From positions 117,447-181,446 of the forward strand of contig JACQQD010000008.1 in assembly GCA_016207165.1 (NCBI GenBank): a stretch of 64,000 nucleotides of DNA, given 5' to 3'. Shown here piece after piece: positions 7,845-50,600 of this stretch. The DNA is from Candidatus Micrarchaeota archaeon. GTDB lineage: Archaea; Micrarchaeota; Micrarchaeia; Norongarragalinales; Norongarragalinaceae. How positions within the stretch are numbered: the first letter of the stretch is position 1; each line of letters opens with the position of its first letter. Both the position numbers and the translations under genes were made by a program. The notes beneath the pieces are model-generated. The model did no database searches, had not been told where the DNA came from, and saw only the letters and a program-made list of their open reading frames with translations.

Positions 7845-8594
7845 TCATTTCGGCATTTTCTGGATGGCGAGGCGGGCGGCGTCATCAAAATCCACGGGGT
7901 TGGGGCTCAAGGCGTTCATTTCCGTTTTCCAGATTTTTTCGGTTTGCCGTACGCGTTTTTGGAATTCATTGGCGTTGAAGGTTTTTTCGTAGTACGTCAG
8001 TTTGCCGTTGACGAGTTCTTTGTCGGGGACGGCGTTTCTTCGTAAAAGAAAGTAGAGGTCGTACAGGTCGCGGGCGGATTGGCGGGTGAGGATGGCGCGG
8101 ATTTTTTCGGCGGCGATTTCCGTTGCGTCCATGGTCTTGAGTGCGTAGGGGAACACGTCGGGATACGGCGGTTGAATGCTGGTGATGACGGGTTCCAGAC
8201 GCGTTTTTTCGCGTAGGCTGAATTCAAGTTGCACCGTGCATTCGCTGATGGGTTTTCCCATGTAAAGCGGGCCGCGGACGCGCAGTTTGGCGGTTTTCGA
8301 AACGGGGGTTTGACTGGTTTTCCACGTGGGTTCGGAAAAGCCCGCTGAAGCCAAAAACGCGGAGGCATTATCTGCGTCGGGTTGTTCTTCCTGGTCCGCC
8401 AGCGTAAAGTCCAAGTCCTCGGAGTAGCGGGGAAGCTGGAAGGCTTTCTGGAGGCAGGTGCCTCCCTTGAAGACGCCGGCAAACCCGGTGCGCGACAAGT
8501 ACGACAAAAGCCAGTGCTGGACGTAGTCTTTCTCTTTTTGGCCTAATGTGAATCCCGGCGGCCCGTATTGGTCGAGTCCTTTCCGGTCAAGCAT
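7845..8594 (-). CDS. Type IV TA toxin, AbiEii-family nucleotidyltransferase
   Basis: EKDY, FKGGTCL, RYSEDLDF, AEKIRA, ARDLYDL motifs. Confidence 0.9.
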   Translation of the reverse strand: MLDRKGLDQYGPPGFTLGQKEKDYVQHWLLSYLSRTGFAGVFKGGTCLQKAFQLPRYSEDLDFTLADQEEQPDADNASAFLASAGFSEPTWKTSQTPVSKTAKLRVRGPLYMGKPISECTVQLEFSLREKTRLEPVITSIQPPYPDVFPYALKTMDATEIAAEKIRAILTRQSARDLYDLYFLLRRNAVPDKELVNGKLTYYEKTFNANEFQKRVRQTEKIWKTEMNALSPNPVDFDDAARLAIQKMPK

Positions 8595-9259: not shown

Positions 9260-10372
9260 TCAGGGTAAGTAGATTTTTTCGTAGGCTTTCGTGGTGTTAT
9301 CCCAGTTGAATTGCTTGAGGACTTTCTTTCGGCCGTTTCGACCGAATTTCTTGGAGGTTTTCGGGTCGGCCAAAAGTTCGTTGGTTTTTTGGGCCAGGAG
9401 CTTCGGGTTTTTCGGTGGAACCAAGAAGCCGTTTTGGTTTTGGTCCACGACTTCGGGAATGCCGCCGGTTGTGGTTGAAACTACGGGTTTTCCGGAGGCC
9501 ATGGCTTCAAGCAAAACCATGCCGAAGGGCTCCCACAGTGAGGGAAGGACGAAGACGTCGCAGGCGGCGTAGTATTGGGCGATCACGTCTTCGGACAGCT
9601 CGTCGGTGATGAAGGTGACGGGCGCCTTCTTTTTTTTCGCGTATTTTTTCAGGGTTTTTTCAAGGGGCCCGCGTCCAATGATGACGGTGTCGGCGTTGAT
9701 TTCCAGGGAGGCGTCGATGAGGTATTTGAGGCCTTTTTGTTTGACGAGGCGTGCGACGCACAAGACGAATGGTTTTTCGTGGGGTGCGTTTGGGGTTTGT
9801 TTTCTCGGTTTGAAGACGTGGGCGTCAACTCCGTTGTAGGCCACGGCCTTTTTTCCGTGGAATTTTTTGGGGAGGGTGATGTCCAGCGTGTTTTGGCTGA
9901 CTCCGAGGATTCCGGTGCACGCGTTCATTACAGTTGAACCTATGGTGTCGTCAAAGGCTTGGCCCCAAAAGTCGGTGGCCACGTCAATGCCTGTGGTTCG
10001 GGCGTTGTGCAGGGTCAAGTACAAGGGAACGCCGTATTTTTTGGAGGCGGCCACTAGGTCCAGTCCATAAAAGAATCGGTTGTGGGCGTGGACGAGGTCC
10101 ATGTGCGGCAAAAGTTTGGCGAGGTCTTTGGCGTGGTCCGGCATGATGGGGATGGGTGGGACGAGGGGTTGGGGTAAGTCTTCCAGGACCCAGGCGTTGG
10201 AGCGTACTAAGTGCATGCCGTGAAGGTCCTCTTTTTTTGGGGTGTTGGGCAGCTTTGCGGTCAGGACCGTGACGTCGTGGTTCTTGGAGAGCCGTTTGCC
10301 GACTTCCAGGACGTGTTTTTCGGTGCCGCCTTGGTAGGGGGAAAAAAAGGGGTTGAGCATGAGGATGCGCAT
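9260..10372 (-). CDS. Glycosyltransferase family 4 (GT-B)
   Basis: MRILMLNPFF..GGTE; ARLVKQKG; EPFGMVLLEAMASGKPVV; start refined to the ATG at 10372. Confidence 0.9.
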   Translation of the reverse strand: MRILMLNPFFSPYQGGTEKHVLEVGKRLSKNHDVTVLTAKLPNTPKKEDLHGMHLVRSNAWVLEDLPQPLVPPIPIMPDHAKDLAKLLPHMDLVHAHNRFFYGLDLVAASKKYGVPLYLTLHNARTTGIDVATDFWGQAFDDTIGSTVMNACTGILGVSQNTLDITLPKKFHGKKAVAYNGVDAHVFKPRKQTPNAPHEKPFVLCVARLVKQKGLKYLIDASLEINADTVIIGRGPLEKTLKKYAKKKKAPVTFITDELSEDVIAQYYAACDVFVLPSLWEPFGMVLLEAMASGKPVVSTTTGGIPEVVDQNQNGFLVPPKNPKLLAQKTNELLADPKTSKKFGRNGRKKVLKQFNWDNTTKAYEKIYLP

Positions 10373-10437
10373 GCTAATGGTGACGGTGGAATTGGATTTA
10401 AAGCGTGACGGCTGACACGGGAAGAATTGTTTGTTGG

Positions 10438-10782
10438 TTATGTTTTCGTTCGTCGGTTCCATTCGCGTCGTATTCGCTTGACGTATTTACTTCCGCTTCC
10501 TTTTTCATTTTTCCAAAGTCCCGCGGCGTTGTCCATGACTTTTTTTCTGAGTTTTATAGCAAGACCGGCAAATGAAACAAACCGCTTGGCGGTTTGTTGC
10601 ATGCTGCAAGCCGTTATCGGCTTGCATCATTTCACGACGAATAGGCCGGTCTTGCTAGACAGCACAGCACAAATTGCTATGGCAATTTGTGTGGCCTTGC
10701 AAATCTTAGCGATTTGCAAGAAACCAAGACTATTGGCTTGGGAAACTTTCTTGGTTTGCTGTATTGATGCCATCGATGTCAT
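10438..10782 (-). pseudogene. Small antitoxin-like ORF interrupted by the palindromic element
   Basis: Removing 10557-10761 plus one TA restores MTSMASIKLRKKVMDNAAGLWKNEKGSGSKYVKRIRREWNRRTKT*. Confidence 0.5.
10557..10761. mobile_element. TA-flanked palindromic mini-element, copy A (205 bp, with two nested 57-bp inserts)
   Basis: TA at 10555-56 and 10762-63; 91-bp core colinear with 20897-20987; inserts at 10572-10628 and 10664-10720. Confidence 0.8.
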
Positions 10783-10821
10783 TTCGCGTCAAGTTCTGAT
10801 GTTTTCTTCGATTTATTCGTT

Positions 10822-12075
10822 TCACACGGTGACGGTTTTTCCTTCGGTTGGAGCCGATGCGTCGAAGCCTTCGGCTTTGAGGTCCGCGACGAGGGCTTTG
10901 GCGGCGGATTCGTCGCCGTGCACGCAGAAGACGTGTTTGGGGTTGACGGCTTTCGCGTAGGCCACCAGCTCGGGGCCGGAGGCGTGCGCCGAGAACTCGA
11001 ATTGGCTTACCGGGAGGTTGACTTTGTCGGAGTAGCCGTTGAACCGCACTTTTTGGCCGTTTAGAAGCGCGTAGCCGTTGGATCCAGGGGCTTGGTAGCC
11101 GGTTAACAAAACGACGCCGTTTTGGCGGTGGTTCAGAGCCTTCAAATAGGATAATGCGGGTCCGCCGTCAAGCATTCCGGCGGTGGCGATGATGACTCCG
11201 GGTTTTTTGACGGCGGCTTGGCGTTGCGTGTGGGATTCCATGAAGCGCGTGCGTTTTACGGCGTCGCGCAAGAGGTTTGGGTTCTTGATGTAGGAGGGAA
11301 AATCCAGCATGATGTCGGTCACGGTTTTGGCCATGCCGTCCAAGTAGAAATCGGCTTGAACGCCTCTAGCTTGTAAAATGCAGAGGATTTCCTGCGCTCG
11401 GCCGATGGCGAAAGCGGGAACCAAGACGGTTTGGTTGTGGTCGACGGCGTCTTGGACTTGGTCGCAGAAGCGTTTTTCGAGTTCGTTTCGGTCGGGGTGG
11501 TCGGCTCCGCCGTACGTGCTTTCCGTGACCAGCACGTCGACGTCGCTTTTGGGTGGCTTGGCGCCGGCGTGAAGCCGCGTGGGTTCGGGTTTGAAGTCGC
11601 CGGTGTACAAGAGCGTTTTCTTGTTTTGGATGAGGACTTGCGCGGCGCCCAGGATGTGGCCGGCGTCGAAGAACTCGAAGCGGGTGTCTTCGTAGAACGC
11701 GTATTGGGCGTTGTAGGGAAGCGGAATGGCGTGTTTGAGCAGGGTCTTGACGTCTTTGCGGTTGTAGGGTAGCGCTTTCTTGTTTAAAATCGCGATTTTT
11801 TCGGAGTCTTCCCACAACAAGTTCACCAAGGGCAATGTGGGAAAGGTGGCGAAGGCGGGGATGGGGTGGTGTTTGTAGAGGGAGGGCGCGGCGCCGGAGT
11901 GGTCCAAGTGGGCGTGGGAGAGAATGAATGCGTCGGCTCTGATTTTCGAGAAATCCGGCATGCTGTCTTCTTCCCGGATTTTCATGCCCGCGTCCAAGAC
12001 GATTTTGACGTCGGATTCGACGAGAAACGCGCTTTTGCCGACTTCTTGGCAGGCGCCGATGAAGGTGAGCTTCAT
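10822..12075 (-). CDS. Metallo-beta-lactamase/beta-CASP ribonuclease (aCPSF-like)
   Basis: GACQEVGKS, SHAHLDHSG, AGHILG, YTGD, ESTYG, FAIGRAQE, FSAHA, VHGD. Confidence 0.9.
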   Translation of the reverse strand: MKLTFIGACQEVGKSAFLVESDVKIVLDAGMKIREEDSMPDFSKIRADAFILSHAHLDHSGAAPSLYKHHPIPAFATFPTLPLVNLLWEDSEKIAILNKKALPYNRKDVKTLLKHAIPLPYNAQYAFYEDTRFEFFDAGHILGAAQVLIQNKKTLLYTGDFKPEPTRLHAGAKPPKSDVDVLVTESTYGGADHPDRNELEKRFCDQVQDAVDHNQTVLVPAFAIGRAQEILCILQARGVQADFYLDGMAKTVTDIMLDFPSYIKNPNLLRDAVKRTRFMESHTQRQAAVKKPGVIIATAGMLDGGPALSYLKALNHRQNGVVLLTGYQAPGSNGYALLNGQKVRFNGYSDKVNLPVSQFEFSAHASGPELVAYAKAVNPKHVFCVHGDESAAKALVADLKAEGFDASAPTEGKTVTV

Positions 12076-19518: not shown

Positions 19519-20784
19519 TTAACCGTCCAAGAGTTCTTTGGCGCGCTTTACGTTGACGTTTTTCTCTTTGGCCATGATGGCGGCGATGCGGTCAATGTCG
19601 TCGCCGGTTGCCCCGGCTTGCACGGCAATGTTGGCGGCGTGCAACTTCATGTGACCTTGCTGGATACCTGTCGTCGCCAAAGCGCGCATGGCCGCAAAGT
19701 TCTGCGCCAATCCAACGGATGCCAGGATTTCGCCGAGTTCTTTTGCGCTTGAAACCCCCAGAATCTTGAGGTTGGTTTTGGCCATGGGGTGGGTGCGCGT
19801 CGCGCCGCCGACGACTCCAACGGCCATGGGCAACTCGATTTCTCCGGTCAAGTCGCCGTCCTTGGTTTTCCAGTATCGCGTGAGGGTAGTGTATTGGCCG
19901 GTTTTCATGGCGTACACGTGTCCGCCGGCTTCCATGGCGCGCCAGTCGTTGCCTGTCGCCAAAACGACGGCGTCCATGCCGTTGAAGATGCCTTTGTTGG
20001 CGGTGCAGGCGCGGTACGCGTCGTTGGCGGCGAAGGCGTAGGCGTCAAGCATCGCTTCCACGATGGCTTCTCCGTTGAAAGCGCCTTTGGTGCTTTCCGC
20101 AAGGGCTTCTTTCGTCCAAGTGGCATGCGCTTTGGCGGTGCGGTGCACGGCCAAATTCGAGAGGATGCGGAGGCGGGCTTTGGCGCCGGTGATTTGCTCG
20201 ATTTTGGGGCTGATGGCTTCGCACATGGTGTTCACGGCGTTGGCGCCCATGGCGTCCTGGACGTTGACCAGCAAATGCAAGATGAGCATGTCGCCGCGGC
20301 TGGTTTTAATCACCCGGCTTTCCAGGTCCACGGCTCCACCGCCGCGGGAGACCATGACGGGGTCTTTTTCGTTGGCGGTTTCAAGCAATTCGCCCTTGTG
20401 TTTTTTGACGGCGGCTTGGGCTTTACGGAAATCCGGGACGTGCACCAACTGGATTTGGCCGATCATGATGGGTTGCGTGGTGGATGCCGTGAATCCTTTT
20501 GGGAGGCACAATTTGGCGGCGTGGCTGGCGGCCGCCACTACCGAGGGCTCTTCGACGACCATGGGGACGAGGCGTTCTTTGCCGTTGACTTTGAAGTGGT
20601 CGGCGATTCCCAACGGCAAAGGGTAGGCGCCCACCACGTTTTCGATCATGCGGTTGGCCGTGGATTCGTCCAATCCCCCAAACGTCTTGAGGCGCGCGAG
20701 GTCCTCGGCGTCCAATTTCGCCAGTGTGGCGACTTCCTCGGCGCGTTCTTGGGGTGACTTGTTCCTAAACTCTTTGGAGAGCAT
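19519..20784 (-). CDS. mvaA: HMG-CoA reductase, class II
   Basis: MIENVVG, EEPSVVAAAS, DAMGAN, NKGIFNG, GNDWRA, GIQQGHMKLH. Confidence 0.95.
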   Translation of the reverse strand: MLSKEFRNKSPQERAEEVATLAKLDAEDLARLKTFGGLDESTANRMIENVVGAYPLPLGIADHFKVNGKERLVPMVVEEPSVVAAASHAAKLCLPKGFTASTTQPIMIGQIQLVHVPDFRKAQAAVKKHKGELLETANEKDPVMVSRGGGAVDLESRVIKTSRGDMLILHLLVNVQDAMGANAVNTMCEAISPKIEQITGAKARLRILSNLAVHRTAKAHATWTKEALAESTKGAFNGEAIVEAMLDAYAFAANDAYRACTANKGIFNGMDAVVLATGNDWRAMEAGGHVYAMKTGQYTTLTRYWKTKDGDLTGEIELPMAVGVVGGATRTHPMAKTNLKILGVSSAKELGEILASVGLAQNFAAMRALATTGIQQGHMKLHAANIAVQAGATGDDIDRIAAIMAKEKNVNVKRAKELLDG

Positions 20785-20896
20785 GAAACCGTATTGGAGT
20801 CCTGGGGTTTCAAAAGGCTGCCGGGTGTTGGGCGATTGACGAAGGGTCTACGGGTTTTTATACGCGGATTGTCCAGAAAACGCTTGAACTGAATTA

Positions 20897-20987
20897 CAGT
20901 AAACCACGAATGTTTCCCGACAAAATAGTCGTGGTTTACTGTCTAGCAAACTCCGCCTATTCGTCGTGAAATTTGCGGGGTTTGCTA
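20897..20987. mobile_element. TA-flanked palindromic mini-element, copy B (91 bp), in the hmgR/hmgS intergenic region
   Basis: TA at 20895-96 and 20988-89; two inverted hairpin units; homologous to copies A and C. Confidence 0.8.
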
Positions 20988-21008
20988 TACTGGAAGGTTT
21001 ATTGTTCA

Positions 21009-22046
21009 ATGGCAGGCATCATCGGCTACGGCGTCTCCATTCCGCGCTTCCGCATCAAGACCGAGGAAATCGCGCGGGTGTGGGGCAAAAACGGGGCGCA
21101 CATCACCTCGGGTTTGGGCGTCAAAGAGAAAGCCGTAGCCAGCATCGACGAGGACTCCGCTACTCTGGCGGTGGAGGCCTCCCGGCGGGCCGTCCTTATG
21201 GCGGGCATTGACCCGCAGAAAATTGGCGCGGTGTACGTGGGCTCGGAATCCAAGCCGTATGCCGTCAAGCCCACGGCGTCCATTGTCGCGGATGCGTTGA
21301 TGGCTGGACCGGACCTCATGGCCGCCGACTATGAATTTGCGTGCAAGGCGGGAACGGCTGGAATGCAGAACTGCCTGGGTTTGGTGTTAAGTGGAATGGT
21401 GGACGTGGGACTGGCGGTAGGCGCCGACACCGCTCAGGGAAGGCCGGGGGATGCATTGGAGTTTTCGGCGGCCTCCGGCGGCGCCGCGTTTTTGGTGGGG
21501 TCCAAAAACGTGATCGCGGAAATCAATTGCACGTACTCGTTCACCACGGACACGCCGGACTTTTGGCGGCGCCAACACGCCGAGTTTCCGCAGCACGCCG
21601 GAAGGTTTACCGGCGAGCCCGCGTATTTTCGTCACGTGGTTTCCGGGGCCAAGGGCGTGATGAAAAAGGCGAAGACGAAACCCGAGGACTACCAGCATGC
21701 CGTGTTTCACCAGCCCAACGGGAAATTCCCTGAACGCGCGGGCCACATGCTGGGCTTTTCCAAGGAACAACTCCAAACCGGCTTGGTCACGCCGTCCATT
21801 GGCAACACGTATTCCGGCGCGTCCTTGATTGGCTTGGCGGCGGTGTTGGATGAAGCCAAACCCGGCGACCGCATCTTGTGCGTGTCGTATGGTTCGGGGG
21901 CGGGAAGCGACGGGTTTGACATCACGGTAACGCCGGAAATCAAGAACAAAAAGCCGGTGGTGTCCGTCAAGCAGTTGGTGGCGGATAAGCAGTACATCGA
22001 TTACGGGCTGTACGTCAAGCACCGGAGAAAACTCAAGAGTTTGTGA
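21009..22046 (+). CDS. HMG-CoA synthase (archaeal type)
   Basis: [49 protein letters not shown]. Confidence 0.95.
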
Positions 22047-30432: not shown

Positions 30433-32249
30433 GCGGCTTCGTGGTGCAGGGCTTTTGGCAGTAAAAGCGTCAGGGCGGCGTCTTTTCCGTGATCCAGTTC
30501 CCGTGCCATGTGTTCCAACACCGTTCGCGGGTCGTCCTTATCGGTACGGAGGTTTCGCCAGTGCCGGCGCCAGCCTTTACCCAGTTTGAGTTGGACGGCG
30601 TTTTCCTGCAGTTCTTGCGCGGTCAGGTTGACGCCGGAACGCCTTGTCAATTCTGTTGCCAGAAATTCGTAGGCCTGTTCCCTGCTTTGGGGGAGCTTGG
30701 GCACCGGTAAACTTGCCGCTTTAGCTCCGGCGAGGTCCTTGTACTGGCTTTGCAGGCGCTCCCGTTCGCTCTGACCGGAAATGCCGAGGCTGTACAGCAG
30801 CTTGTTGAGGTTGTGCCATGTATCGGCTTTTGCGCCGGGACCCTTGGGCGGTTTTCTCACCCGGTTTCCAAGAGAGTCAATCCACCAGTCTTTGTCTTCG
30901 AGGATCAGGTTGCCGGTGTTGTTGACCACGGCTTTGGCGACGTGTTGCGCAAAGCCGTCCAGTCTGTCTTGGGTGAAGTGGGGGTCCACCTGGGCTTTGC
31001 GGCGAAGCAATAGTTCGGTGACTTTGATGAAGTCGTAGCCGGCGTTGGGGTGGTGTTCATGGACTTGGGCAAGCGGGACGCCCAATTCGGCGGCCACGGC
31101 TTTTTGGGCGGCGGCTTGGAACGCGTTGGTGGGCGGCGCTGGCGTTTTTGCGGGGGCCGGGCCGGGCGTCAACGTGATTTGAGGCGGCTTGCCGCCGGTG
31201 GTGTGCGTGAACAGTGGCGTCGGGGCTTCAGCCCCGGTCGCGACTGCGGCTGGCGTGGGCTTGGCAAAAGATTGTTCGATTTGGTCCGCGATGAAGCCAG
31301 GGGTTTTCAGCGCACCCAGCATGATGACGGCGCCGATGGCGGCGGCTTTGGCTCGTTCTTTCCAGAGAAACGGCGCCGGTTTTTCCGCGAAGCGTCGCAT
31401 GGCTGTGTGTTTGTCTTTTCGGCGCAAAAGCTTGAGTTCCTCGATGCCGTGGAGCATCTGGCGCGGGGTGGCGGTGGCTTTGGAAAGGATGTCGTTCGTC
31501 ATTTGGGCAGGAAAGTGCGAGAGCATGTATTCCCTCACCAAAAACTCGTTCACGTCGCCTTGGACGCGCCGCAGTTCTTGTTTGTACTCGTCCAAGGCGG
31601 CGCCTTTGACTTCAGGACTCCAGTTCGGCTCGGCGCGTATGGCGTGGCTCAGCTTGTTTTGTGCGGTGTCGCCTTGCTCGGCGGCTTTCAGGTGTCCTTG
31701 AGCGACGTGGAGTTGTTGTTCCAGGAGGCGTTTCATCTCGTCGGGATGAACGTCGCTGGGTAATCTCCATTCCCGGTTGCCTACGCGGATGAAGTTGCCT
31801 CCCAGAAGCACTAGCGGGTCTTTTCTTCCGCTGATTCTCCTCTGGCGCTCCATGAAGGCGCTGAGCCTTGCCAGAAATCCGCGGAACATGAAGTTCGGTC
31901 CCAAGTCTCGGAATTGGTGCTGCAAGCGATTTTCGATGTCGGCGTCAACTTTTTCTTGGAGCTCAGCTTCAAGCGCTCGCGTTTTTTCCTCGAATTCCAG
32001 GAGTTTCGGGTTGGTGCGCCGCAATGCGTTTTCATGTTCTCTTTCGACCGCCGGCGCGTACCCGTCGCCCAGCATGGTTTGAACCCGGGTTTGGATTTCT
32101 TCGTGAAGGGCGCGTTCTTCGTGGGCGCTCAGCCGTGTTTTGATGCCTAAGACGGCGGGAGTCCACGTCTGCTCTCCCGCCCATCGCATGAGTTTCCTAG
32201 CGTGGTTTCGGAATGCTTCCAGGAACGTCATTTTTTCTTCCTCGGCCAC
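30429..32249 (-). CDS. Single-pass membrane protein with Pro/Thr linker (paralog 2)
   Basis: Charged helical N-terminus, TM AAAIGAVIMLGAL, P/T-rich linker. Confidence 0.75.
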   Translation of the reverse strand: MAEEEKMTFLEAFRNHARKLMRWAGEQTWTPAVLGIKTRLSAHEERALHEEIQTRVQTMLGDGYAPAVEREHENALRRTNPKLLEFEEKTRALEAELQEKVDADIENRLQHQFRDLGPNFMFRGFLARLSAFMERQRRISGRKDPLVLLGGNFIRVGNREWRLPSDVHPDEMKRLLEQQLHVAQGHLKAAEQGDTAQNKLSHAIRAEPNWSPEVKGAALDEYKQELRRVQGDVNEFLVREYMLSHFPAQMTNDILSKATATPRQMLHGIEELKLLRRKDKHTAMRRFAEKPAPFLWKERAKAAAIGAVIMLGALKTPGFIADQIEQSFAKPTPAAVATGAEAPTPLFTHTTGGKPPQITLTPGPAPAKTPAPPTNAFQAAAQKAVAAELGVPLAQVHEHHPNAGYDFIKVTELLLRRKAQVDPHFTQDRLDGFAQHVAKAVVNNTGNLILEDKDWWIDSLGNRVRKPPKGPGAKADTWHNLNKLLYSLGISGQSERERLQSQYKDLAGAKAASLPVPKLPQSREQAYEFLATELTRRSGVNLTAQELQENAVQLKLGKGWRRHWRNLRTDKDDPRTVLEHMARELDHGKDAALTLLLPKALHHEAA

Positions 32250-32545
32250 CGGCTAGCGATTTCATCGGATTGGGCAATCAATTGCCTGACTTCGTTTTGG
32301 AGTCTTATCACTTCCTTTTCTTGCTCTACTTGGGCCTGGACACTCGTTTTTGCCAACTCCATCATGCGGCGGATTTCAAGGCCTGTATGGTCGTTTCCCG
32401 CTTGTTTGCGGATGTCTTGGCACACGGCTTCTGCGATTTGTCGAGCCGTTTCAGGATGGATGTGGTGTCTTTCGGGCAATTTTTTCTCGAGGAATGCCTG
32501 CAGGCCCGTCAGGCTTGCTTCCAACCGTTGCCTCGTTGTTTCCAT
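32228..32545 (-). CDS. Small helical hypothetical protein
   Basis: 105 aa; overlaps the downstream start. Confidence 0.65.
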   Translation of the reverse strand: METTRQRLEASLTGLQAFLEKKLPERHHIHPETARQIAEAVCQDIRKQAGNDHTGLEIRRMMELAKTSVQAQVEQEKEVIRLQNEVRQLIAQSDEIASRWPRKKK

Positions 32546-32577
32546 GATAGCAGATATTTAGGGAAACGACTTTTTTA

Positions 32578-32622
32578 TAGCAATCCCCGACTATTTTGTC
32601 GGGTCACTTTCTTGGTTTGCTG
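32578..32622. mobile_element. TA-flanked palindromic mini-element, copy C (45 bp, single unit)
   Basis: TA|tagcaatccccgactattttgtcgggtcactttcttggtttgctg|TA; same termini as copies A and B. Confidence 0.75.
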
Positions 32623-32643
32623 TATTGACTTTCGTTTTTTTCC

Positions 32644-46331: not shown

Positions 46332-46439
46332 GCGGCTGTGGTCTAATGGTTTGCTTCCTGGTTTCAAGATTCAAACCGGATATTGGCATGATTCGAGCTT
46401 CCCAAGCTCGCTGCGCGGGTTCGATTCCCGCCAGCCGCA
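46332..46439 (+). tRNA. tRNA-Gly(CCC) with a ~37-nt intron in the D-loop
   Basis: Acceptor stem GCGGCTG/CAGCCGC; anticodon arm CGAGC-TTCCCAA-GCTCG; T arm GCGGG-TTCGATT-CCCGC; hairpin-forming insert at ~46350-46386. Confidence 0.9.
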
Positions 46440-46550
46440 TTCAGTCCAGGTCTGTGTGCGCAATTGGTCAGATTGTGCCGTATTGCGCAAGAATATGCAG
46501 AATACGGCACTATTTAACCTCAGGCCTGTTTGGCCATTGACGAGCGGGTC
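46429..46550 (+). repeat. att core plus left end X (copy 1)
   Basis: Diverged direct repeat of 48718-48837 (cagtccaggtctgtgtgcg ... gcactatttaacctcaggcc). Confidence 0.9.
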
Positions 46551-47648: not shown

Positions 47649-47725
47649 ATGCAATCTCTGAACTTCTTTTCTTTAAAACAATTTGACCTCCGCTTTTCGG
47701 CCGTCAATAGTCCTTTCGATCCACA

Positions 47726-47850
47726 TTTCAAATGTTTGACCTATGTCTTGAAGAACTTCTCATGCGTCTCCTTGAGGCGCGCATAAAGGAAATTCTCAAG
47801 CGTAATGGTTCGTCCGTTGTCTGAATCTTCCAGGGCCGAAAAATAGGTTA
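47726..47850 (-). pseudogene. Fic gene 3' remnant
   Basis: LTYFSALEDSDNGRTITLENFLYARLKETHEKFFKT*VKHL, near-identical to the C-terminus of 49462-50415. Confidence 0.9.
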
Positions 47851-48622: not shown

Positions 48623-48837
48623 GTCGTGTTGAATTCAACACGATTTTACCAAACAAACCACACCCACCAAGCAGGCCTCTAAGCGCGGCAGCCGCATCCA
48701 GAACAAGTCTGAGTTCGCGCCAGCCGCATCCAGTCCAGGTCTGTGTGCGTTTTTTGCACGATTGTGCACATATGCGCATGATTATGCAGAATTCAGCACT
48801 ATTTAACCTCAGGCCCGTTTGGCCCTTGACGAGGGTC
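48623..48837 (+). repeat. Central junction: right end Y, att core, left end X
   Basis: First half matches 50494-50600 and second half matches 46429-46550; contains the 20-bp palindrome tcgtgttgaattcaacacga. Confidence 0.9.
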
Positions 48838-49461: not shown

Positions 49462-50415
49462 TCATTCCAAATATTTGACGTAAATCTTGAAGAACTTTTC
49501 ATGCGTCTCCTTAAGCCGCGCATAAAGAAAATTCTCCAAAGTGATGGTTCGACCGTTGTCCGCATCTTCCAGAGCTGAAAAGTAGGACAGCCGCTGCGTT
49601 TTGCGGATGATGAGTGGAGGGTAGCCAGCTTGCAACAACATGGCGTTGATGAGGAAGCGACCGACGCGGCCGTTGCCATCTTCGAAAGGATGGATTTGTT
49701 CGAAACGGCCGTGAAATTCAGCTGCGAGTTGCAGCGGGTGCTTTTTGGAGCGGTTTTCCTCAAACCAGACAAATAGCTCGCCCATTTGTTTTGCGACGCC
49801 TTCCGGCGGCGTGGTGAGCACTTGCCGGCCGTGGATGTAATTGGGCAGTTGCTTGTAGCCCGTAGCGATTCCCATGTCCTTGACGAGAATCGAGTGCATT
49901 TTGTGCATGTCCTTTTCGCGGACTTTGAGTTTGCCCCGCAAAATAAGGTCAATGACTTGCCGGGAATTACGGGTTTCGTAGATTTCGCGCAAGTTTTTGC
50001 CCGGAATGGCGACGTTTTCATGAATGACGATGGCAACGTCCTTGAGAGTCAACGAGTTTCCTTCAATGGCGTTGGATTCGTAGGTGAAGTTAACGGTGAA
50101 GCGGTCGAACAAATCGGTTTTTTGGGCATCCGTCATCTTCGACATCAGTTTGCGGTATTCCAACCGCATGCGTTCCATTTTTTCAGGCGCCGAAAGGTCT
50201 CGTAGTTTCAGCGAGGCATAGTGCTTTTTCGCGAAACGAACCCGAGCTTCAACCTCTTTTTGTTCAAAATAATCCTCAAGTTCCCGATTGTTTTTGCCGG
50301 TTCGGCCTTGGACGCGCTTGGCTATTTTGTGCACCCGACCGTCCGGTAAGCGGATGGACTTGACCGCATACAGATAGTCTTTGCCTTTGATGCGCTTTTG
50401 AGCGAAATGAGCCAC
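49462..50415 (-). CDS. Fic-domain protein
   Basis: HPFEDGNGRVGR catalytic motif; SNAIEGN inhibitory-helix motif. Confidence 0.95.
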   Translation of the reverse strand: MAHFAQKRIKGKDYLYAVKSIRLPDGRVHKIAKRVQGRTGKNNRELEDYFEQKEVEARVRFAKKHYASLKLRDLSAPEKMERMRLEYRKLMSKMTDAQKTDLFDRFTVNFTYESNAIEGNSLTLKDVAIVIHENVAIPGKNLREIYETRNSRQVIDLILRGKLKVREKDMHKMHSILVKDMGIATGYKQLPNYIHGRQVLTTPPEGVAKQMGELFVWFEENRSKKHPLQLAAEFHGRFEQIHPFEDGNGRVGRFLINAMLLQAGYPPLIIRKTQRLSYFSALEDADNGRTITLENFLYARLKETHEKFFKIYVKYLE

Positions 50416-50493: not shown

Positions 50494-50600
50494 TGTGCCG
50501 AATTCAACGCGATTCAACCAAACAAACAACGCACGCAGCCAACACTGTAAGCGCGGCAGCCGCATTGAGGACAGGACTCAAGGTGCGCCAGCCGCATTCA
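50494..50600 (+). repeat. Right end Y plus att core (copy 2)
   Basis: gaattcaac..accaaacaaac..taagcgcggcagccgcat..gcgccagccgcattca. Confidence 0.9.

Follow-up and report, generated by a model that had tools for sequence, protein, structure and literature searches.

Archaeal intergenic DNA carries small non-autonomous repeats (MITEs), archaeal tRNA introns, which can be mobile or variable, are tolerant and turn over quickly, and the reduced genomes of DPANN archaea are usually described as poor in mobile DNA. In bacteria, the ERIC/IRU elements and the BOX elements of Streptococcus pneumoniae are intergenic imperfect palindromes that form size classes through internal blocks or the number of modules, and both ERIC and BOX are described as transcribed. 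Bacterial REPINs (PMC3116915) are inverted doublets that represent the predominant and best-kept form, with singlets being decayed. REP dimers are described inside larger palindromic repeats of Anabaena variabilis, Thermomicrobium roseum and Halothiobacillus neapolitanus in PMC3733652, and REPs are presented as preferred IS targets in PMC1525189.

We analyzed a window of 64,000 nucleotides (the whole stretch of DNA under study) from a Candidatus Micrarchaeota archaeon, whose genome assembly (G000) comprises 1.27 Mb in 12 contigs, is 90% complete and has 56% G+C. The window contains an interrupted palindromic doublet, copy A, which belongs to a dispersed repeat family of groundwater DPANN archaea. 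This family resembles REP, BIME and REPIN elements in being made of short intergenic palindromes, in having more doublets than singlets, in its compensatory stem changes and in its lineage-restricted, patchy spread. The family differs in having no GTAG or CGTC tag, its ends reading TTAYAGCAA / TTGCTRTAA, in a longer unit (~47 nt) with a conserved 18-22-nt loop and in its archaeal host. It also differs from REPIN-RAYT systems in that the four module-richest genomes have no RAYT and the presence of Y1 transposases does not follow that of the elements in 68 genomes of the order; the end tag and the RAYT thus set the family outside REP/RAYT.

The nesting within copy A is similar to that of the bacterial palindromes and REP-targeting IS, in that a hairpin of one repeat family receives a member of another. 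However, the guest here is a 53-60-nt noncoding double hairpin rather than an IS or a REP dimer, and it is also present in a tRNA intron and in tRNA-side hairpins and forms arrays of up to at least six hairpins. The likeness to ERIC/IRU and BOX is one of plan only, with no sequence relation (no Rfam match). Terminal inverted repeats, a feature of MITEs, are present on both the modules (outer 9 nt) and the smaller units, but membership of the MITEs fails for lack of a parent IS with the same ends, and in contrast to archaeal MITEs no cognate IS was found in G000. The literature searched contained no account of repeats like these in Micrarchaeota or DPANN. On balance, we think it probable that copy A combines two tiers of non-autonomous, structure-defined DNA repeats, namely REPIN/BIME-like doublets and smaller double hairpins that nest in hairpins.

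Architecture of copy A

Copy A (10554-10763, plus strand) is an inverted doublet composed of two palindromic modules with two nested double-hairpin units, and measures 210 nt, or 96 nt without the inserts. Module 1 (10554-10657, plus strand) is of the H1 type, with the stem TATAGCAAGACCGGC / GCCGGTCTTGCTA and the loop AAATTTCACGACGAATAG, which houses insert 1. This 57-nt insert (10572-10628, plus strand; 10573-10629 fits equally) belongs to the TGAA..TGCATGC..TCA subtype and forms two perfect hairpins of 9-10 bp at 10576-10598 and 10605-10626. The doublet centre at 10658-10659 is the dinucleotide GA (TC on the opposite strand), as at every doublet junction read. Module 2 (10660-10763, plus strand), of the H2 type and in the orientation opposite to module 1, has the stem CAGC^AAACCAAG / CTTGGTTTGCTG and the loop ACTATTGGCTTGGGAAACTTT; its 5' arm is broken by insert 2, 4 nt off the doublet centre. 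Insert 2 (10664-10720, plus strand) is likewise 57 nt long, belongs to the ACAG-CACAAAT..TGGC-CTTGCAA.. subtype, scores 64.7 bits with the R2 model of the small units and folds into two perfect hairpins of 9-10 bp at 10668-10691 and 10696-10720.

Alignment of window positions 10545-10775 with four uninterrupted or half-interrupted paralogs and copy B, a second doublet in the window, opened two gaps of exactly 57 columns each, with a boundary ambiguity of 2 nt (AT) for the first insert and 1 nt (A) for the second. The sequence-only reading had taken copy A for the 91-bp core of copy B plus two inserts of exactly 57 bp at these positions, each a pair of hairpins, homologous to one another and placed at different points of the core. 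The paralog alignment agrees with the inserts and their extents, and the placement in the loop of module 1 and the 5' arm of module 2 bears out the last point. An uninterrupted element does exist as proposed, but it spans 96 nt rather than 91. Homology between the inserts is supported by their full-length alignment with 15 units from other contexts, which retains 10 invariant columns among the 17 units.

The nearest insert-free paralog of copy A, at C12:74380, matches module 1 at 46 of 47 positions and module 2 at 48 of 49. Copy A is nevertheless a mosaic, as module 2 is nearest to C12:74380 and module 1 with insert 1 is nearest to the copies on contig C7. The site of insert 1 is shared with C7:5945-6001 and C7:33196-33252, each of which is identical to insert 1 at 53 of 57 positions. 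With R1, the covariance model of the modules, module 2 of copy A is matched at C8:128160-128211 and module 1, read across insert 1, at L239:1389-1497.

When folded as single-stranded DNA, positions 10550-10768 reach -67.6 kcal/mol, compared to -29.1 +/- 3.4 kcal/mol in 200 shuffles (z -11.3; none of the 200 as good), and both host hairpins persist in the fold as multibranch junctions. Adjacent arrays of at least two perfect hairpins of at least 8 bp occur 10 times in the genome and 0, 0 and 0 times in three mononucleotide-shuffled genomes. At the junction of insert 1, AAATGA and TCATTT form by eye one continuous helix without 3-nt bulges, and a bulge-helix-bulge (BHB) motif is absent there, in contrast to archaeal BHB-bounded introns. 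RNA-level mobility via tRNA splicing was considered as a candidate and rejected on this absence and on the lack of an RVT_1 match.

Depth at copies A and B is three- to four-fold higher, and both are points at which contigs end. In run X2, one contig jumps from 10663 to 10721 and thus has no insert 2; its shorter side has only 35 letters, and the insert-free C12:74380 is an equally possible source of this contig.

Two repeat families and their distribution

The module of the larger family is a palindrome of ~47 nt in which TTAYAGCAA and 5-7 variable stem bases precede a conserved loop, followed by the complementary stem strand and TTGCTRTAA, with the outer 9 nt acting as terminal inverted repeats. 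The loop is asymmetric, 18-22 nt long and present in two variants, AAATTTCACGACGAATAG and GAAAGTWWCCCGACAAAATAGT, which align as a single family once the modules are oriented by the loop; in that orientation all doublets are tail-to-tail and joined by GA/TC. The R1 covariance model identified 46 distinct modules (56 matches) in G000, and together with interrupted modules seen by eye these make up 29 loci, 22 inverted doublets and seven singlets. Several of the singlets, copy C of the window included, are chimeric or degenerate with mismatched arms. All 29 loci lie outside confidently coding sequence on a gene map drawn by a crude longest-ORF heuristic, by which long-start or doubtful ORF calls reach into 11 of 30 regions.

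Beyond G000, BLAST detected the module family in four of 41 relatives, and R1 matched 13 of 68 genomes of the order, from four families, with 65 down to one match per genome; all of these genomes are metagenome assemblies, in which repeats may be collapsed or missing. Distant matches retain the doublet plan and the loop motif, and several families of the order share the loop motif GAAAGTAAYCCGAC. Among named genome records, a pattern scan found the module pattern in three Candidatus Micrarchaeota MAGs, and a scan of metagenomes found it at 66 loci, with no match to the pattern in viral contigs.

The small units are double hairpins of 53-60 nt with the ends TGAAGCAA / TTGCTTCA, and the blocks nested in paralog pairs measure 57, 57, 60 and 109 nt. 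Counted on both strands, R2 matches number 13 in G000 (nine places), 49 in G001, 22 in G002 and 75 in G009. The R2 family is also abundant in G008, a genome in which R1 finds nothing, whereas G064, G030 and G060 have R1 matches and no R2; nesting was found where the two families coexist.

Within modules, the units occupy several sites. Three G000 copies carry a unit in the H1 loop. The centre-proximal arm is occupied after YAGC^A in copy A, by relatives of insert 2 with two or four hairpins in G001, G002 and metagenome contigs, and by a related 109-nt array of four hairpins in a different module type, an H3 module of G000 (C1:47019-47130). An H3 arm holds a 60-nt block, and an H2 loop is used in G009. 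The junctions of nested units have no common target sequence and would allow a target duplication of at most 1-2 nt. Among 28 unit loci, with several of the contexts judged by eye, 10 are in modules, one is in a tRNA-Ser(CGA) intron, one lies by a tRNA-like 5' half and 16 are elsewhere; of the last group, five have a called tRNA gene at a distance of 18-75 nt and eight are by eye at the tip of a TTTTCTTTT...AAAAGAAAA hairpin.

The sequence-only reading had suggested a second, smaller hairpin family that targets the first. Its existence as a family that nests in the first is supported by at least four kinds of site, by a genome distribution of its own and by an orthologous site that is filled or empty by 57 nt, but the targeting is not specific, given that 16 of the 28 loci are outside the first family. 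The search that the same reading had proposed, for free-standing units and for cores with varying inserts, did recover other units of the 57-nt type in several genomes and contexts.

Two of these contexts involve tRNA genes. In the cleanest case, a T-rich hairpin upstream of tRNA-Thr(CGT) is simple in G000 and carries a 57-nt unit in its loop in G002, the tRNA genes themselves being nearly identical. At G000 C11:34292-34495, the tRNA-Ser(CGA) intron is 118 nt long and contains a three-hairpin cluster, compared to introns of about 40-78 nt in three relatives. This cluster is 81-83% identical to G001 C17:104428-104508 and G009 C69:16589-16671, and the tRNA-Ser introns of G001 and G009 are short and lack it. 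A unit at G001 C14:33373 was considered as a second intron case because it follows a tRNA-Ser-like 5' half, but was rejected as ARAGORN calls no tRNA there.

Several further observations were made on hairpins of this kind. The G001 C17 copy of the cluster is flanked by a 29-nt direct repeat (two mismatches) of the first codons of a gene, the product of which begins MILAWDFDGVLVD and is HAD-like by eye. T-rich hairpins of the form TTTTCTTTT-loop-AAAAGAAAA lie ~60-75 nt from tRNA genes in G000 at C6:92184-92208, C6:95458-95479, C6:89996-90021 and C11:34430-34451, and relatives hold a double-hairpin unit at the tip of the T-rich tRNA-side hairpin. Arrays of six to seven mini-hairpins are found at G001 C4:587-763, G002 C68:16540-16726 and G009 C97:8984-9157; those of G001 and G002 are free-standing, and the G009 array takes up the loop of a lone module (~170 nt).

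Base pairing, turnover and possible routes of spread

In an alignment of 43 modules from four genomes, 97% of the cells are paired, and both partners vary at 11 of 14 pairs; as the rows had been chosen with a hairpin finder, this percentage is circular and the test was redone on modules picked solely by their 5' box and loop. A complementary 3' arm (at most three mismatches in 13) was present in 65 of 80 unique modules so picked, and at least six of the 15 without one carry nested units. The non-Watson-Crick cells, 56 of 845, include four G-T and 10 A-C. For the small units, helix a of the alignment is 93.5% paired with seven of 10 pairs changing on both sides, a percentage that is partly circular because a hairpin finder picked the rows, and 18 of 20 pairs change on both sides in the R2 alignment, a model-fitted one in which both strands are counted.

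Such strong stem covariation with few unpaired cells would suit functional structured RNAs, either small RNAs or cis-acting elements of mRNA or pre-tRNA, bound by a conserved RNA-binding protein, with the 57-nt blocks as optional expansion hairpins placed where the fold is undisturbed. We regard this explanation as possible but rather unlikely. It is consistent with the conservation of the loop motif across families of the order and with the nested units all leaving the host helix foldable as a multibranch junction; like the tRNA intron position, both would also suit a host protein site. With one unit cluster in the tRNA-Ser(CGA) intron, the family is transcribed at least there, and pre-tRNA transcripts are likely at the five of 16 other units that lie near tRNA genes. 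However, G-U pairs are rare and no commoner than A-C, the orientation to neighbouring genes is variable (copy A and C6:70082 are oppositely oriented to the gene upstream of them), and a start directed by the terminal TATA read inward would fall inside the first hairpin. Chimeric and truncated copies, the patchy spread among genomes and differences in presence at orthologous sites also argue against it. No relevant Rfam family was found, as the window at gathering thresholds gave only a tRNA and the C6:93037 locus gave nothing; at E values up to 10, the best match in 10400-10900 had 15.9 bits against a cut-off of 40. Since G-T is rare, orientation varies, copies are chimeric, presence differs between genomes and Rfam has no match, the indirect evidence leans towards DNA.

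Evidence on turnover comes from comparisons between paralogs or between species of ~70% identity, from which the direction of gain or loss, and movement itself, are inferred. Within G000, copies whose flanks are unrelated share 96-98% identity with copy B, whereas orthologous genes of G000 and G001 are only about 66-73% identical. Where G001 has the elements L015 and L069, the counterpart intergenic regions of G000 are just ~93 and ~75 nt, and two genes that overlap in G000 are set apart in a metagenome relative by a 297-nt spacer that contains a doublet; the intergenic DNA at these empty G000 sites and filled G001 or metagenome sites is too diverged for alignment. The TA/TTA flanks belong to the conserved palindrome and are hence inseparable from any target duplication. 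The small unit appears to be gained or lost as a discrete block in noncoding hairpins, with the host hairpin foldable in every case.

Hairpins within hairpins could also arise with no movement at all, as by-products of template switching or slippage at palindromes during replication or repair, spread afterwards by gene conversion. Compensatory changes nearly without G-T intermediates are what arm-to-arm correction is expected to leave, and the modules with mismatched arms, the mosaic nature of copy A and the lack of a match to seven transposase and reverse transcriptase families in G000 fit this origin as well. We nonetheless find it very improbable, because homology extends over the whole of the units, linkers included, even between unrelated contexts and different genomes, which points to shared descent rather than local origin. 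The same conclusion is favoured by the resemblance of the G000 tRNA-Ser intron cluster to G001 and G009 loci outside tRNA-Ser introns, and by the near-identical doublets with unrelated flanks.

Under the favoured two-tier reading, both tiers would spread as DNA. The likely route would be through hairpins extruded from single-stranded or cruciform DNA, recognised by their shape together with a conserved loop or box. The enzyme would act in trans and would be outside the seven families tested, and the small unit would land in, or survive only in, unpaired or helix-interrupting positions of existing hairpins. A bolder form of this reading, in which the small double hairpin is a free-living mobile element, among the smallest known, that encodes no protein, is recognised by its fold alone and integrates into unpaired or helix-interrupting positions of other DNA hairpins (those of repeats, tRNA introns and tRNA-side hairpins), seems to us unlikely. 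It would call for an enzyme of a kind so far not connected with transposition, perhaps a nuclease of host replication or repair.

The search for a mobilising enzyme gave no match in G000 (90% complete) to Y1_Tnp, TnpB zinc ribbon, DDE_3, DDE_Tnp_1, rve, RVT_1 or DEDD_Tnp_IS110, and the linked HUH/TnpA-REP or IS630 transposase that the initial reading had suggested looking for is absent from that genome. The Y1 profile PF01797 had no match in G000, G001, G002 and G009, which are 71-90% complete. Across the order, Y1_Tnp occurs in 18 of 68 genomes, that is, in two of 13 with modules and 16 of 55 without. A long IS-like repeat is absent from the G000 assembly, in which the only long repeats are three contig-end overlaps.

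These overlaps, of 88-95% identity, pair C7:1-468 with C12:1-469, C10:28626-29020 with C11:400-794 and C4:1-236 with C6:1-236, and may be strain variants or unresolved assembly duplications. As candidate IS fragments they were rejected, since reading their ORFs by eye revealed no obvious transposase. An autonomous element was also sought between adjacent doublets, at C6:68974/70082, C12:35205/36007 and C9:44596/46796, and rejected similarly, the ORFs there being small or spurious-looking with no transposase by eye. Integron attC sites, replication-origin boxes, H/ACA or C/D RNAs and K-turns were set aside, as the loci are dispersed and not in cassette arrays, the stems are perfect without a pocket and there are no box motifs.

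G000 therefore has none of the seven transposase and reverse transcriptase families tested, despite ~50 copies of one structured repeat and a second repeat nesting inside. If the elements move, they would point to an unrecognised enzyme that reads DNA hairpins and would represent an archaeal counterpart of bacterial REPIN-RAYT, minus the RAYT. If the small double hairpin is itself mobile, DPANN genomes that look free of transposons would hold an active, self-nesting layer of structural DNA. If the repeats are RNAs, they would form a new multi-copy class of structured RNA with modular growth. In either case, the repeats break metagenome assemblies, alter tRNA intron length between species and bring TATA-like ends to gene starts.

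Gene context and other features of the window

Copy A lies between two minus-strand genes, a family 4 glycosyltransferase gene (9260-10462), the start of which is 92 nt from copy A, and a gene for a beta-CASP / metallo-beta-lactamase RNase (10822-12075), the stop of which is 58 nt away. Copy B (20894-20989, minus strand) is an uninterrupted doublet with the H1-to-H2 orientation on the minus strand, and its TATA end is 19 nt ahead of the ATG of a plus-strand gene. Copy C (32574-32626, plus strand; 43.9 bits) is a single chimeric module with a 5' arm of the TCCCCG subtype and a 3' arm of the CTTGGTT subtype, and because the arms are of different subtypes they do not pair.

The two ends of every module read TTATAG / CTATAA, despite the 56% G+C of the genome. 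On the crude ORF map, roughly 20 ends face a gene start, and ~7 of them lie 19-32 nt from a candidate start codon of the gene directed away from the element; they include window positions 20989-21011 and 32545-32579, and G000 C9:27417, C6:69070, C1:47186 and C2:33849. These ends could be donated promoters or could reflect insertion into TATA boxes.

The doublets might instead be protein-binding DNA sites, such as operators, nucleoid-organising sites or TATA carriers for a leaderless gene, in which case the nested units would be tolerated passengers. The TATA-like termini, their spacing from candidate starts at copies B and C among others, and the position of all 29 loci outside confidently coding sequence are in line with such a role. 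Archaeal BREs have a purine-rich consensus, however, unlike the GGTTTGC just inside the TATA, and three loci (C7:5925, C8:34495 and C8:76444) lie between convergent genes. The start codons are only candidates from the crude ORF map, no common function was noticed among the neighbouring genes, and presence at the same genes differs by species. We therefore attach little credence to the doublets being binding sites.

Other features of the window were recorded in passing. An intron-bearing tRNA of 108 nt at 46332-46439 (Rfam 52.4 bits) was missed by ARAGORN defaults, which called nothing on the window; with introns allowed, ARAGORN called 44 tRNA genes genome-wide, 24 of them with introns of 20-235 nt. 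Near this tRNA, direct repeats of 36-124 nt with 79-85% identity are spaced ~1.7-2.3 kb apart (46425-46544 and 48714-48833, 47724-47847 and 49463-49586, 48626-48732 and 50495-50600), which suggests tandemly duplicated genes. An ORF at 7845-8594 on the minus strand matches AbiEii, the nucleotidyltransferase toxin of a type IV toxin-antitoxin system (E 5.6e-31). Finally, the exact 20-nt direct repeat GTTTTTTGACGGCGGCTTGG occurs at 11202-11221 and 20400-20419 in two different minus-strand ORFs, with a third copy of 85% identity at 31100-31119.
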